DNA of 64,000 nucleotides from a virus (IMGVR_UViG_3300034357_000765); one strand, 5' to 3'; numbered from the stretch's first letter, positions 12,170 through 16,421 are shown. Numbers and translations: made by a program. The notes: generated from the sequence alone by a model not told the origin.

Positions 12170-12199
12170 AAAAAAAGAGAGCATTTGCTCTCTTTTTTT
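12170..12199. terminator. bidirectional intrinsic terminator (agagagc attt gctctct) flanked by an A-run and a T-run
   Basis: Inverted repeat between the convergent genes ending at 12128 (+) and 12198 (-). Confidence 0.7.
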
Positions 12200-12548
12200 A
12201 TATAGATTCTATTTCTGATATTTTTCTTTCTACTTCATATAGAAGTGATATACAGTCACCTTTAAGCTCTTTTAGTTTTAATGGTGCCAAATCTTTTCTA
12301 AGTTCTGTGTCGATTGATTTTATCTCTTCGTTTATTGTTTCCTTTAGTCTTTCTAAATCAAAAAGAACATCTTCTTTGATTTCTATGAAAAGATCTTTGT
12401 AATAAGGATTTGATAATACCATTTCTTTGTACATAGGAACACTAAACCTTTTTACTATAAGAGTTAGTTGTTTTATAATACTCTCTTCAGTATTTGCGGA
12501 TTTTAATTCTTCTATCGCAATATCAAATTCTTCTTTACTCTTAGCCAT
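12198..12548 (-). CDS. hypothetical protein (116 aa), last gene of the sigma-to-SmpB operon
   Basis: ORF abutting the SmpB stop. No motifs recognised. Confidence 0.5.
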   Translation of the reverse strand: MAKSKEEFDIAIEELKSANTEESIIKQLTLIVKRFSVPMYKEMVLSNPYYKDLFIEIKEDVLFDLERLKETINEEIKSIDTELRKDLAPLKLKELKGDCISLLYEVERKISEIESI

Positions 12549-12991
12549 TATCTATCACTCAATTCTCTTTTTGAGTCTCTATCAATGTCTCTGCTTTTGA
12601 TATCCTCTTTTTTGTTCCAAAGTTTTTTACCTTTACATACACCAATTTTGACTTTTATCAAGTTCTTAGATATGAATACTTCTAATGGTATGATAGTAGT
12701 ACCCACAGCTTGAATAAGTTTCTCAATCTTATTTATTTCACGTCTATTCAAAAGAAGTTTCTTTTCTCTATTTTCGTCGTGTTTGTCAAGCATATGAGAT
12801 TGTTTGTATTTGGCGACTTTCATGTTTTTGATAAACAACTCACCGTTCTTTATATAGACGAAAGAATCTGCAATAGTAACATCACTTCTTCGAATTGACT
12901 TCACTTCATTACCAATAAGTTTTATACCAGCGTCAAAAGACTCGAGTACCGAATATTCAAAATATGCTTTTCTGTTACTTGTTATTTTCAT
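12548..12991 (-). CDS. smpB: SsrA (tmRNA)-binding protein SmpB homolog
   Basis: NRKAYFEYSVLESFDAGIKLIGNEVKSIR matches [29 protein letters not shown] of bacterial SmpB. KKLLLNRREI and KVKIGVCKGKK...KEDIKSRD match KLLLNQRE and [22 protein letters not shown]. Confidence 0.85.
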   Translation of the reverse strand: MKITSNRKAYFEYSVLESFDAGIKLIGNEVKSIRRSDVTIADSFVYIKNGELFIKNMKVAKYKQSHMLDKHDENREKKLLLNRREINKIEKLIQAVGTTIIPLEVFISKNLIKVKIGVCKGKKLWNKKEDIKSRDIDRDSKRELSDR

Positions 12992-13553
12992 AGCTACAAA
13001 TGTACTTATAATCTTTTAGATTATCAAGCGATATTGTTATATTATCACCATCGAATCTGTTCTTTATTATCTTTATTTTTCTTCCTTCTATCACATAAGC
13101 CATGTCTGCCATGTAAATGCTTCTATTTCCTCCACTGAAAGATGGTATATCATTACCTAAGGCAGATCCCATTGTTGAGTTTACTGGTGAGAGTATAATC
13201 AAACTATATTTGGTTTCCAACACCTCTTTTCTCATTTGTCCGACAAATTCAGATATGTGTCTACTCCTTTCAAATGCAGATTCTGATTTTGACATGCTGA
13301 AATTTCCCAAATCGACTACTAAAAAGTTTGTATTTGAAAATTCTTCACCATCCAACACAGAGCCAATCTTTTTATCTCTTATTGTTCGCTTTAAGGCAGA
13401 CATAACAGAAAAAGACGAATCAAATTCAAAAATCTCTATGTGAGGTAATTTTGAAATGAGTTCGTCTTTTATCCGTTCATCCTGGTACTTATAGCCAATC
13501 ATAGTAAGATTCGATTCTTTAAGATATTCGAATATTTTATTGATTGGTTTCAT
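12975..13553 (-). CDS. RecA/DnaB-superfamily ATPase-fold remnant resembling a DnaB C-terminal domain, with no P-loop
   Basis: LVVDLGNF (Walker-B-like) and SPVNS...GNRSIYMADMAYVIEG...IKIIKNRFG resemble DnaB SQLNR...IEQDADVVMFL...IIIAKQRNG. No GxxxxGK[ST] motif is present. Confidence 0.35.
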   Translation of the reverse strand: MKPINKIFEYLKESNLTMIGYKYQDERIKDELISKLPHIEIFEFDSSFSVMSALKRTIRDKKIGSVLDGEEFSNTNFLVVDLGNFSMSKSESAFERSRHISEFVGQMRKEVLETKYSLIILSPVNSTMGSALGNDIPSFSGGNRSIYMADMAYVIEGRKIKIIKNRFDGDNITISLDNLKDYKYICSYENNK

Positions 13554-13559
13554 AAAGGA

Positions 13560-13961: not shown

Positions 13962-15227
13962 TTATCCTAATATATTTCCGACTTTGTTTTTTGTGTCGTT
14001 CACAATCTCTTTACGAACGCTTAGTTCTAAAAGAAGTTGATTACATTCATCATCTAAATCATCATAAAGACCGACATTACCTTTCTCTAAAATAGAGATT
14101 GCTATTATAGGATCTTCTTTGTATATATCCAACAGCTTTTTTACCAAAGAAAGCTGTTGAGACATCTTCATTCCTTTAAGACTCTCAATCGACTTTGGTG
14201 CATAATCACCAAGTCTTTTTAATAAGTCAAGATCTTCTTTAGAAACTTCCATATCTACATATCCACAATCTGTGTAGAAGTAGTATATCTTTTCCCAGAT
14301 TTGCTCCATTTCTGTTCCGAACACGTTTCTGATATAGAAAAGAAAATCTTTTGAAGTATGTAGTTTTCCCAGGTTGTCATCATTGAAGATATTGTTTGTT
14401 TCTAATAATGAAAGAATATCATAGTCTTTACTTTCTTGTTCCTTTATCGGTAAGAAGTAGTCAGTGTTCGTAAGACCATACAACTCAGTATCAACATTTT
14501 TATGTAGTTTTAGAAATTCCTCAATCTCTTTATCTCTTTCTATTTTAAAGTAAGGTTCTAACAAATTTTTATTTTGTTGAAACATCTCAAAATATCTTTC
14601 TTTGAATCTAAATTTGTTCACATCGGAAAAGCATCGAGACAAACAATATGAGATAAGTTTAAACTCCATTTCGTCAAGCTTGGCATTAAGCTCTTTACTT
14701 TTCTTGGCAATCCTTATGGCTGTGTGTGAAGGAGTCTGTATATTACAAATCTTCAACTCACCAGTATTTAAGAAATCTTCAAAGTCCTTTGTGATGTAGA
14801 ACTTATCTTCTTCAATCGAATATCCTACTCTGGTTGCATTTATATCAAAAGAGTTAAGGATTATACCTTGTTCATCCGTAGATGCTTTATATCCAATCTC
14901 ATTGAATATTCCTTTCTTTTCAGAAGAAGTTATAGTATAAAAGTCTTTTGTATAACTATTCCAGCACATTCCTGTGTAGTCTTCGTAGTATCTAACATCT
15001 TCTTCTTTGAATCTAAACAAAGAATCTTCTCTACTTATCTCTTCTTGATTATCAATCTTTCCTTCAAAAAGGAATATATCAAGATCATTCACAACTGCTG
15101 GGTTTCCAGAGTGTAATTCCCATATTGTGTTGGCTAAAGAGCCTCCTGCCAAAAATCCCTTTTGAGGCAGACCCCATTTCGATTTCAATATTTCTAAGGC
15201 CTTTCTGGCCAGGATCTCAGTTTCCAT
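13962..15227 (-). CDS. nucleotidyltransferase of the tRNA CCA-adding / poly(A) polymerase head-domain family
   Basis: LAGGSL...NDLDIFLF matches the GGxxRD...DxD motif, and NSFDINATR resembles the RRDFTINA motif of class II tRNA nucleotidyltransferases. The C-terminus is divergent. Confidence 0.45.
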   Translation of the reverse strand: METEILARKALEILKSKWGLPQKGFLAGGSLANTIWELHSGNPAVVNDLDIFLFEGKIDNQEEISREDSLFRFKEEDVRYYEDYTGMCWNSYTKDFYTITSSEKKGIFNEIGYKASTDEQGIILNSFDINATRVGYSIEEDKFYITKDFEDFLNTGELKICNIQTPSHTAIRIAKKSKELNAKLDEMEFKLISYCLSRCFSDVNKFRFKERYFEMFQQNKNLLEPYFKIERDKEIEEFLKLHKNVDTELYGLTNTDYFLPIKEQESKDYDILSLLETNNIFNDDNLGKLHTSKDFLFYIRNVFGTEMEQIWEKIYYFYTDCGYVDMEVSKEDLDLLKRLGDYAPKSIESLKGMKMSQQLSLVKKLLDIYKEDPIIAISILEKGNVGLYDDLDDECNQLLLELSVRKEIVNDTKNKVGNILG

Positions 15228-15229
15228 TT

Positions 15230-15796
15230 TTAGTCTAGTATTACGTCAATAACTCCTAAATCTTTTGCTTCTTGTGCTGTCATAAACCAGTCTATTTTGT
15301 TTTCTAAAACTTTTTTAAGTTTCTTCTTTTCAATATTGGTTCTTTCCATAGTATATTCTTCAATCTGTTTCTGTAGCCTTTTTGCTTCTTCAACTTTCTC
15401 TTCCATATCCTGTACTTTTCCAAACGCCCCAGAAGAGACTTGGTGATACAATGGTGTAGACATTTTGTGAGCGAATCTTTTATGTCCTGATATTAAGATT
15501 AAGAATCCACAGCTCATCGCACATCCTGTTACGATTGTATGGATTGGAGTCTTACTTCTCTCCATTACAGATAAAAGTCCAAAACATTGGTATACCGCAC
15601 CTCCATAAGAGTCGATGTATATCTTGATTGGCTTTGGCTTGTATTCGATGCCGTATACAGCGTACATCTTTTTAATATGTTTGTCATCTTCGTTTATTTC
15701 GATGATATTTTTGGTCAAATCACCAATAGAGGATTGATCCACCTGCTTTGAAAAGTAGATGTTTCTCTCCTTTGGTAGCTGCAAGTTTGTAGCCAT
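15230..15796 (-). CDS. clpP: ClpP-family serine protease subunit
   Basis: YIDSYGG, TGCAMSCGFLILISG (Ser) and RFAHKMSTPLYHQ (His) align with ClpP YINSPGG / GQAASMGAFLL / RVMIHQP. The C-terminal EAKDLGVIDVIL resembles EAVEYGLVDSIL. Confidence 0.8.
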   Translation of the reverse strand: MATNLQLPKERNIYFSKQVDQSSIGDLTKNIIEINEDDKHIKKMYAVYGIEYKPKPIKIYIDSYGGAVYQCFGLLSVMERSKTPIHTIVTGCAMSCGFLILISGHKRFAHKMSTPLYHQVSSGAFGKVQDMEEKVEEAKRLQKQIEEYTMERTNIEKKKLKKVLENKIDWFMTAQEAKDLGVIDVILD

Positions 15797-15821
15797 TTTT
15801 TAAAGTTTTAAGGTTAGTAAA

Positions 15822-16421
15822 TTAAAGGTACATTTCGTCAATCTGCTTGAACTCGCTTTCAGTTTCTTTAACAAGAATGGCTCTTCCATTTCTTATCTGA
15901 GATTTGATTGTGCTTAAGTTTTTGCCTAATGTGTCAGATATGTCTTTATAAGACATTCTTTTGATTTCTCTCATTTCAATAACACTTCTATAAGGTTCTT
16001 TTAGACTGTCGATATGTTTTTTCATTATTTCGGCTTTTTTGTCTTGAACATCATGTAGAACTACATCACTTTCTTCTTGTGTGATAAAGTCTTTCATAGT
16101 AGTTCCTTCGTCGTCATATTCAACGTCCAAAGAAATACTTCTTTTGTCATTTTTAATGCTTTGTAATGCGAGATTTTTTGCTATAGTAAATAGCCAAGTT
16201 GAGAATTGTGCTTTTTCGACATCGTATTTGTCTATTTTCTCAAACGCAGTCAGGAAAGAGTCCGTTGAGATGTCCTCTGCTTTTTGAGGATCGTTGCACA
16301 TTTTTGATGTGTAGTAGATTAACTTTGGGTAATACTTCTTGTATAATGTTGAGAAGTCTTTACCTGTTCTTTCTACGAAGATTTTTTCTTGATCACTGAA
16401 TAAGATTGCTTTTGATTCCAT
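15822..16421 (-). CDS. ECF-type sigma-70 family RNA polymerase sigma factor
   Basis: Region 2 (FSTWLFTIAKNLALQ) and region 4 helix-turn-helix (MSYKDISDTLGKNLSTIKSQIRNGRAIL). Confidence 0.8.
   Translation of the reverse strand: MESKAILFSDQEKIFVERTGKDFSTLYKKYYPKLIYYTSKMCNDPQKAEDISTDSFLTAFEKIDKYDVEKAQFSTWLFTIAKNLALQSIKNDKRSISLDVEYDDEGTTMKDFITQEESDVVLHDVQDKKAEIMKKHIDSLKEPYRSVIEMREIKRMSYKDISDTLGKNLSTIKSQIRNGRAILVKETESEFKQIDEMYL

Follow-up and report, generated by a model that had tools for sequence, protein, structure and literature searches.

A seven-gene minus-strand block encoding an ECF-type sigma factor, a Gad2-family nucleotidyltransferase, thioredoxin and SmpB recurs in related huge phages

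We investigated a block of seven minus-strand genes in IMGVR_UViG_3300034357_000765, a viral sequence of which a 64,000-nucleotide (nt) stretch (hereafter, the window; coordinates are counted from its first letter) was analysed. A first-pass annotation had read the block as a single operon for an extracytoplasmic function (ECF) sigma factor, ClpP, a CCA-type nucleotidyltransferase, thioredoxin (Trx), a RecA-fold remnant and SmpB, together forming a host-takeover or translation-maintenance module. The features of the block are listed below from its upstream end, with protein lengths in amino acids (aa).

16497..16541, minus strand: promoter-like element, AACTTTT-N3-ATATAT followed by a TATAAT-like box, recognised by conservation across aligned loci
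15822..16421, minus strand: ECF-type (group 4) sigma-70 family factor, 199 aa (Pfam, TIGR02937, PHROG 1740)
15230..15796, minus strand: ClpP-family (S14) serine peptidase, 188 aa, an optional block member (PF00574 and catalytic triad)
13962..15227, minus strand: Gad2-family nucleotidyltransferase, 421 aa, whose head and neck resemble those of class II CCA enzymes and poly(A) polymerase, the C-terminal half being helical and distinct
13560..13904, minus strand: thioredoxin, 114 aa, WCGPC active site (PF00085, TIGR01068)
12975..13553, minus strand: 192-aa protein of a stand-alone family; its core is weakly RecA/UvsX-like and has no Walker A; 17-nt overlap with the SmpB gene
12548..12991, minus strand: SmpB (SsrA-binding protein), 147 aa, with a basic C-terminal tail (PF01668, NF003843, TIGR00086)
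12198..12548, minus strand: 116-aa protein, an optional block member, whose start codon overlaps the SmpB stop (ATGA)
12168-12201, no strand: bidirectional intrinsic-terminator hairpin, a 15-bp stem with flanking A-run and T-run

The seven open reading frames (ORFs) are separated, from the sigma gene down to the 116-aa gene, by 25, 2, 57, 6, -17 and -1 nt. The hairpin, AAAAAAAGAGAGC-AUUU-GCUCUCUUUUUUU, stands directly 3' of the last stop codon of the block; its stem has a folding energy of -18.2 kcal/mol (z = -6.1), and none of 200 shuffled sequences folded as well. It is common to the block and a convergent plus-strand gene ending at 12128, and is able to terminate in both directions because an A-run flanks one side and a T-run the other. 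No minus-strand terminator-like site was found inside the block. These coordinates, gaps and hairpin agree with the earlier description of tightly packed or overlapping genes running into a bidirectional terminator. The co-directional run begins further upstream, with three minus-strand genes beyond 16421 (a 208-aa ORF, a 104-aa ORF and the NAD-dependent DNA ligase LigA, 17537-19381), and no Shine-Dalgarno sequence was found at any of these ten genes.

The names first given to the sigma factor, thioredoxin, SmpB and the ClpP-family peptidase were borne out by profile searches. The sigma factor comprises regions 2 and 4 only (PF04542, E = 2.6e-16; PF08281, E = 1.7e-10) and passes the ECF model TIGR02937 (82.8 bits versus a cut-off of 42.9), with the next-best models, SigW and a Bacteroidetes sigma-70 subfamily, both scoring under their own cut-offs. 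It is 70-78% identical among relatives, and no anti-sigma gene was recognisable beside it, the adjoining gene being ClpP or the Gad2-like gene. The thioredoxin matches PF00085 (E = 1.2e-26), exceeds the equivalog cut-off of TIGR01068 (98.9 versus 96.8 bits) and carries WCGPC at residues 30-34. Similarly, SmpB matches PF01668 over positions 1-142 of 143 (E = 3.3e-50) and lies above two equivalog cut-offs (NF003843, 168.2 versus 130; TIGR00086, 160.3 versus 119.1). It is 37% identical to E. coli SmpB, and its tail, GKKLWNKKEDIKSRDIDRDSKRELSDR, aligns with the E. coli tail; within this tail GKK...NKK...R is conserved, GKK being invariant across 11 sequences. The basic C-terminal tail of SmpB is needed for function in the ribosomal A site.

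The peptidase matches PF00574 (E = 1.5e-29; 103.6 bits versus a cut-off of 20.2), and its invariant triad S95/H118/D169 aligns to that of E. coli ClpP at 27% overall identity. It nevertheless scores far under every NCBIfam ClpP cut-off (best, 86 versus 249), and PHROG 'head maturation protease' families score it equally well. The Pfam match begins at profile position 41, the protein being without ~30 N-terminal residues (the axial-loop segment); in canonical ClpP this segment serves gating and coupling to the unfoldase. The proposal that all proteins of the block are strongly diverged from bacterial orthologs thus held for the ClpP-like protein and the sigma factor, both far under specific NCBI cut-offs, but not for SmpB and thioredoxin, which pass equivalog cut-offs.

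Comparison with related huge phages confirmed that the gene order is shared. The closest records, LR756502 (642 kb) and LR745206 (635 kb), are Mahaphage-clade genomes of Al-Shayeb et al. 2020 and show 69-72% DNA identity over parts of the block, the Prevotella Lak megaphages being more distant matches. The order sigma-[ClpP]-Gad2-like-Trx-[192 aa]-SmpB-[116 aa] is found again in about ten related loci (LR756502, LR745206, five IMG/VR contigs, among them L005, L006, L007 and L015, and four metagenome contigs reached via distant homologs of the 192-aa protein). Identical copies of the window's block proteins were seen on 29-58 metagenomic contigs, the longest reaching 186 kb, where their JGI names are sigma-70 ECF, Clp protease subunit, thioredoxin 1 and SsrA-binding protein, the other three being hypothetical. 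Three members are dispensable in the block: ClpP is missing from L002, L007 and L115, L007 also lacks the 192-aa gene, which went undetected in L006, and L115 has no 116-aa gene. An extra ORF of 110-117 aa follows ClpP in L001 and L111. The genes for thioredoxin, the 192-aa protein and SmpB overlap or lie a few nt apart even where the identity of the 192-aa protein falls to 27% (L113); one homolog of that protein stands alone (L110). On distant SmpB-bearing viral contigs the other block genes are unlinked, with the exceptions of L012/L013 and L014; in L012/L013, an unrelated huge phage, a full-length ClpP (PF00574, E = 2.7e-79) is encoded two genes after SmpB.

The 174-nt gap between the sigma gene and the upstream co-directional genes holds the conserved promoter-like element, which makes a separate transcription start for the seven genes plausible. 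The element lies ~105 nt upstream of the sigma start codon, and its AACTTT and ATAT are invariant in 8/8 aligned upstream regions (180 nt 5' of sigma; window positions 16422-16595, minus strand, with L001, L002, L006, L007, L015, L111 and L115). The exact AACTTTT-N3-ATATAT box occurs once in the window, and two-mismatch copies are about twice as common there as expected, several of them in intergenic gaps. Judging from this conservation, the box may act as a promoter; its AAC core is reminiscent of ECF -35 elements. E. coli-type sigma-70 promoters were not enriched in the window (42 versus 39.9 expected), and TTGATA-16-TATCAT upstream of sigma was rejected as a promoter, not being conserved in relatives. 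The sigma leader also holds a repeated (A)CGGCAA/AGCAA box, conserved in relatives, which stands downstream of AACTTTT-N3-ATATAT, once in mid-leader and once immediately before the ATG, and may be a regulatory or translation-initiation element.

Such a layout might also arise with no functional unit behind it, as inherited collinearity within one phage clade, the seven genes being independent and their grouping of no selective account. Synteny in several relatives extends to LigA on the upstream side and to the 297-aa and 626-aa genes on the downstream side, so part of the conserved order is plain collinearity; the variable presence of three of the seven genes and the distance between SmpB and ClpP-like genes in Lak phages, where they are hundreds of kb apart, fit this account as well. 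However, the near-zero spacing of the thioredoxin, 192-aa and SmpB genes is kept at 27-37% identity of the 192-aa proteins, with flanks that differ, the promoter-like box precedes sigma in every one of the aligned loci, and the linkage of SmpB to ClpP in L012/L013 is independent. On this evidence we regard mere collinearity, with no functional unit, as unlikely.

The block genes have a GC fraction of 0.27-0.36, compared with 0.346 for the window, and SmpB is 45-49% identical to its best clearly bacterial orthologs, from Chitinophagaceae and other Bacteroidota. With composition matching the window and SmpB below 50% identity to such orthologs, the genes are clearly old residents and not recent acquisitions, as the first-pass annotation had also held. 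The host is probably a member of the Bacteroidota, considering these orthologs, the lack of Shine-Dalgarno sequences and the prediction of Bacteroidetes hosts for all >634-kb huge-phage genomes of Al-Shayeb et al. 2020 (PMC7162821). In that survey, the genes reported from huge phages already include SmpB, tmRNA, CCA-adding enzymes, S1 and sigma factors (PMC7162821); the present block belongs to the same clade and gene categories, but the categories were given there across genomes, and a sigma-Gad2-like-Trx-RecA-like-SmpB block is not described. A SmpB that is 61% identical to the window's occurs in a 'Candidatus Muiribacterium halophilum' metagenome-assembled genome (L030, JALOAD010000055.1), with a glycosyltransferase gene upstream and an unknown 122-aa ORF directly after SmpB, as in the phage. 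This contig may be a mis-binned phage fragment, and its SmpB was left aside as a bacterial reference on account of the ambiguous gene context.

Neither ARAGORN nor Rfam found a tRNA or tmRNA in the 64-kb window, or a tmRNA in the complete 642-kb LR756502, despite ~46 tRNAs and a GOLLD RNA in the latter. With no tmRNA in the window or the complete relative, the clade's SmpB appears to be an orphan that would have to work on host tmRNA. In LR756502 the first tRNA array lies ~5 kb from the SmpB gene, the block being ~4-5 kb from large tRNA arrays in relatives, and the relatives' tRNA genes do not encode CCA (0/52 followed by CCA). The GOLLD RNA of LR756502 adjoins a tRNA (L025 38685-39091), and a DUF805b RNA motif is located at L023 46751-46785; L023, L025 and L029 are pieces of this genome. 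A phage-borne SmpB-tmRNA pair does occur on L014, an unrelated 39-kb viral contig (1497-2326), in which the tmRNA gene begins 3 nt after SmpB and encodes an unusually long tag, ANNVVELSTMTFEDVMALVSNEEMAVAA. A tmRNA hidden in the same place here, within the 116-aa ORF, was rejected: ARAGORN and Rfam were negative, and the ORF is conserved as a protein (31-44% identity in relatives).

In bacteria, ssrA-tagged products are degraded by ClpXP, and this, supported by the one independent linkage, makes a functional link between SmpB and ClpP plausible. The block resembles the bacterial SmpB-tmRNA/ClpXP system in having a full-length SmpB with its tail and an equivalog-level score, and a ClpP-family peptidase in the same predicted operon; it differs in lacking a tmRNA (in the window and the complete relative) and in having a ClpP-like protein whose dispensability and lack of the axial segment speak against the link. 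LR756502 contains two further ClpP-like paralogs (~58.6 kb and ~112 kb), so the block copy need not be the prohead protease.

The CCA-type nucleotidyltransferase label of the 421-aa protein was not sustained. Sequence searches returned a sub-threshold PF06042 match alone, over ~40 residues around GGS...DLD, and the AlphaFold model built with 22 homologs was confident (predicted local distance difference test score, pLDDT, 87.8): the protein has the class II CCA-adding/poly(A)-polymerase head and neck fold. Unlike the class II tRNA nucleotidyltransferases and poly(A) polymerase (PDB 3h37, 1miv, 3aql), to which it is 10-15% identical, it has no PF01743 match at E <= 0.1 and a different helical domain in place of the body and tail; by inspection, SFD stands in place of RRD at motif B, and QTPSH in place of EDxxR at motif D. 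An hhalign comparison of the family profile with a canonical phage CCA enzyme was not significant. That canonical enzyme, with all motifs, is encoded separately in LR756502 at ~598 kb (L029 3869-5053, minus strand; PF01743, E = 5e-29; PF12627), so the 421-aa protein is an additional enzyme and not the CCA enzyme of the genome.

Most homologs of the 421-aa protein carry the precomputed Pfam label PF26128 ('Gad2'). Profile-profile comparison (hhalign) with a Gad2 profile made from eight homologs in Supplementary Table 10 of bioRxiv 10.1101/2023.05.01.538930, including the verified Brevibacillus protein, gave a probability of 93% (E = 3.1e-7, 176 columns) over residues 22-223, with the GG, DxD, FD and P...R positions common to both families at ~21% pairwise identity. 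Gad2 is an anti-Gabija protein of SPbeta-like phages of ~400 aa and a predicted nucleotidyltransferase (bioRxiv 10.1101/2023.05.01.538930). The 421-aa protein shares with the Gad2 of SPbeta-like Bacillus phages its length of ~400 aa, its phage origin and an N-terminal nucleotidyltransferase domain, but its C-terminal half is unrelated and its host would belong to another phylum. Searching 50,697 phage records by BLAST reached two Mahaphage genomes only; it took profiles to reveal the relationship to Gad2. No literature on PF26128 was retrieved. We consider Gad2-family nucleotidyltransferase with a CCA-enzyme-like fold the best label, anti-Gabija activity being predicted. Two independent assemblies with the window's SmpB (public contigs L003 and L004) are each interrupted within the 421-aa gene, at 1.9-2.0 kb upstream of SmpB, which may reflect strain variation around the ClpP/Gad2-like junction.

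These results bear on whether the block is a dedicated translation-maintenance module, in which the nucleotidyltransferase would repair or mature the 3' CCA of tRNA or tmRNA, SmpB would rescue ribosomes, ClpP would clear tagged peptides and the other proteins would support them. A bona fide SmpB, the class II CCA/poly(A)-polymerase fold of the 421-aa protein, the nearby tRNA arrays with CCA-less tRNA genes and the SmpB-ClpP linkage in an unrelated phage are all in keeping with this, as are an S1-domain protein in the window and, in two relatives, YqeY-domain genes (GatB-C-terminal-like, a tRNA-associated fold) 1-4 kb from SmpB (L111/L112, ~10.5 kb; L113, 2637-3041). The 421-aa protein, however, fails PF01743, is without RRD and EDxxR on inspection and matches Gad2 rather than the canonical phage enzyme, which LR756502 encodes separately; neither sigma nor thioredoxin is a translation factor, the block can do without ClpP, and the window and complete relative yielded no tmRNA. 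We therefore hold a translation module to be distinctly improbable. Because SmpB alone clearly concerns translation, the translation-maintenance half of the earlier interpretation was only partly upheld: SmpB is a clear translation factor, whereas the other genes and the missing tmRNA partner do not support a unified role, and the bundle of takeover functions is favoured.

The 192-aa protein has no Pfam, PHROG or NCBIfam match, Pfam being negative also on 106 family members, and a plain sequence search of the PDB was likewise negative. A profile search of 1.84 billion cluster representatives retrieved 192 representatives related to it; full-length relatives are 150-225 aa, with ~180 aa typical, so the protein constitutes a stand-alone family and not a gene fragment. 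The Walker A motif [AG]xxxxGK[ST] occurs in 0/112 full-length relatives, and inspection found none in the window's protein. The best PDB match of the family profile was T4 UvsX (3io5), with E falling from 0.0045 for a profile of 17 sequences to 7e-4 for one of 106; the others in the top six included a phage recombinase, FlaH and Twinkle, and other RecA-fold proteins scored E = 0.27-0.48. By hhalign, residues 101-170 aligned with E. coli RecA 173-255 at a marginal E = 0.021, the GG..Y..D and K-N-R strands corresponding. The likeness to RecA/UvsX recombinases thus falls in the latter half of the core, in a Walker-B-like strand and the GG..Y..D and ...K(N/x)R strands, while the size of ~180 aa, the absence of Walker A and the marginal E-values set the family apart; the AlphaFold model (15 homologs) was unusable, with a pLDDT of 38. 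As for the term 'RecA-fold remnant', the signal behind it is weak but consistent, and the description reasonable but unproven. 'SepF-like', the JGI label on one homolog, was dropped, since Pfam did not reproduce it on the 106 members. The 116-aa protein had no Pfam, PHROG, NCBIfam or PDB match.

We also considered a narrower and speculative arrangement, in which thioredoxin, the P-loop-less RecA-like protein and SmpB would form a phage device that commandeers host trans-translation with no tmRNA of the phage's own, the 180-aa family would serve SmpB or the ribosome as an accessory factor, and the Gad2-family enzyme would act on an RNA 3' end (tmRNA or tRNA). This is very improbable in our estimate; if true, it would provide the first clue to the biochemical activity of Gad2.

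The Gad2 homology and the RecA-like family together raise a further explanation, that the block is a counter-defence island: the Gad2-like protein would block a DNA-sensing nuclease, the RecA-like protein would act on RecA- or DNA-end-sensing immunity as its decoy or inhibitor, SmpB would counter defences that cleave mRNA or tRNA and stall ribosomes, and ClpP would degrade defence proteins. A family without Walker A would not be an ATPase, patchily distributed jumbo-phage ClpP has been proposed to act against the host (PMC7824862), and variable gene content is typical of anti-defence loci. Anti-defence homology is nevertheless limited to 1/7 genes and is partial there, sigma, thioredoxin and SmpB have ordinary housekeeping-type explanations, and the core is stable instead of hypervariable. 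Among the readings weighed here we give this one the least credence.

Taken together, the data suggest, with a probability of roughly 55%, that a huge phage of the Mahaphage clade has inherited the block vertically as an auxiliary operon, one that bundles independent host-takeover functions and does not constitute one pathway. The seven genes would be transcribed as one mRNA. The ECF-type sigma factor would redirect host RNA polymerase to phage promoters, the Gad2-family nucleotidyltransferase, probably an enzyme of anti-defence or nucleic-acid modification, would counter host defence (Gabija or similar) by nucleotidyl transfer, and thioredoxin would give reducing power, for example to ribonucleotide reductase. 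SmpB would pair with host tmRNA, raising ribosome-rescue capacity while host or phage nucleases damage mRNAs, and the ClpP-like peptidase, where present, would add proteolytic capacity, possibly for ssrA-tagged products. The 192-aa RecA-like P-loop-less protein and the 116-aa protein would be phage-specific accessories, the former being translationally coupled, as predicted, to thioredoxin and SmpB, with both of which it may act.

Several points weigh against this auxiliary-operon interpretation. The co-directional run extends up to LigA, and the predicted single transcript of seven genes rests on gene layout; the flanking genes share the synteny of the block; and the ClpP-like protein is without its N-terminal segment. 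The Gad2 homology extends over the N-terminal ~200 residues only, with no alignment between the C-terminal halves, and how Gad2 works had not been established as of 2026 (PMC12904381). For the host of this phage, no Gabija system is known. Finally, the tmRNA negative covers the 64-kb window and one complete relative, and a tmRNA elsewhere in the phage's own genome is possible.

Scattered translation and transcription genes are already known in huge phages; here, part of this repertoire forms a stable predicted operon preceded by a conserved promoter-like element. SmpB in a phage that appears to lack any tmRNA would mean that the ribosome-rescue RNA of the host is directly used or manipulated. 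The range of the Gad2 anti-defence family now includes Bacteroidota-type megaphages, where its member is embedded among housekeeping-like genes, and a previously unnamed ~180-aa P-loop-less RecA-like family stands almost always between thioredoxin and SmpB. None of these points overturns current views.

The other features recognised in the window are the following.

2334-8801, 22721-27748, 40102-48768 and 48798-54140, plus strand: giant ORFs of 2155, 1675, 2888 and 1780 aa, respectively
31046-32935, minus strand: SPFH/Band 7 protein
34218-34613, minus strand: DUF6915 protein
35031-35651, minus strand: dephospho-CoA kinase
36364-37470, plus strand: M16 peptidase
54142-54849, minus strand: DnaJ-like protein (J domain and zinc-finger domain)
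55779-57521, minus strand: SbcC/Rad50-like ATPase
60839-63274, minus strand: collagen-repeat protein, 811 aa

The S1-domain protein (28938-30044, minus strand; 368 aa; PF00575, E = 6e-21) is ribosomal-protein-S1-like, and S1-like genes are of a kind reported for Bacteroidetes-infecting huge phages without Shine-Dalgarno sequences. Upstream of sigma in L115 lies a PARG-like gene (341-1087). Downstream of the block, the 626-aa ORF (8911-10791, plus strand) is made up of degenerate 'NTFIG/NNTF'-type repeats, suggesting a fibre or beta-helix protein, the 128-aa ORF (10809-11195, plus strand) ends in a (PEAT)n repeat, and a 16-bp palindrome (11209-11243) lies between the latter and the next gene.

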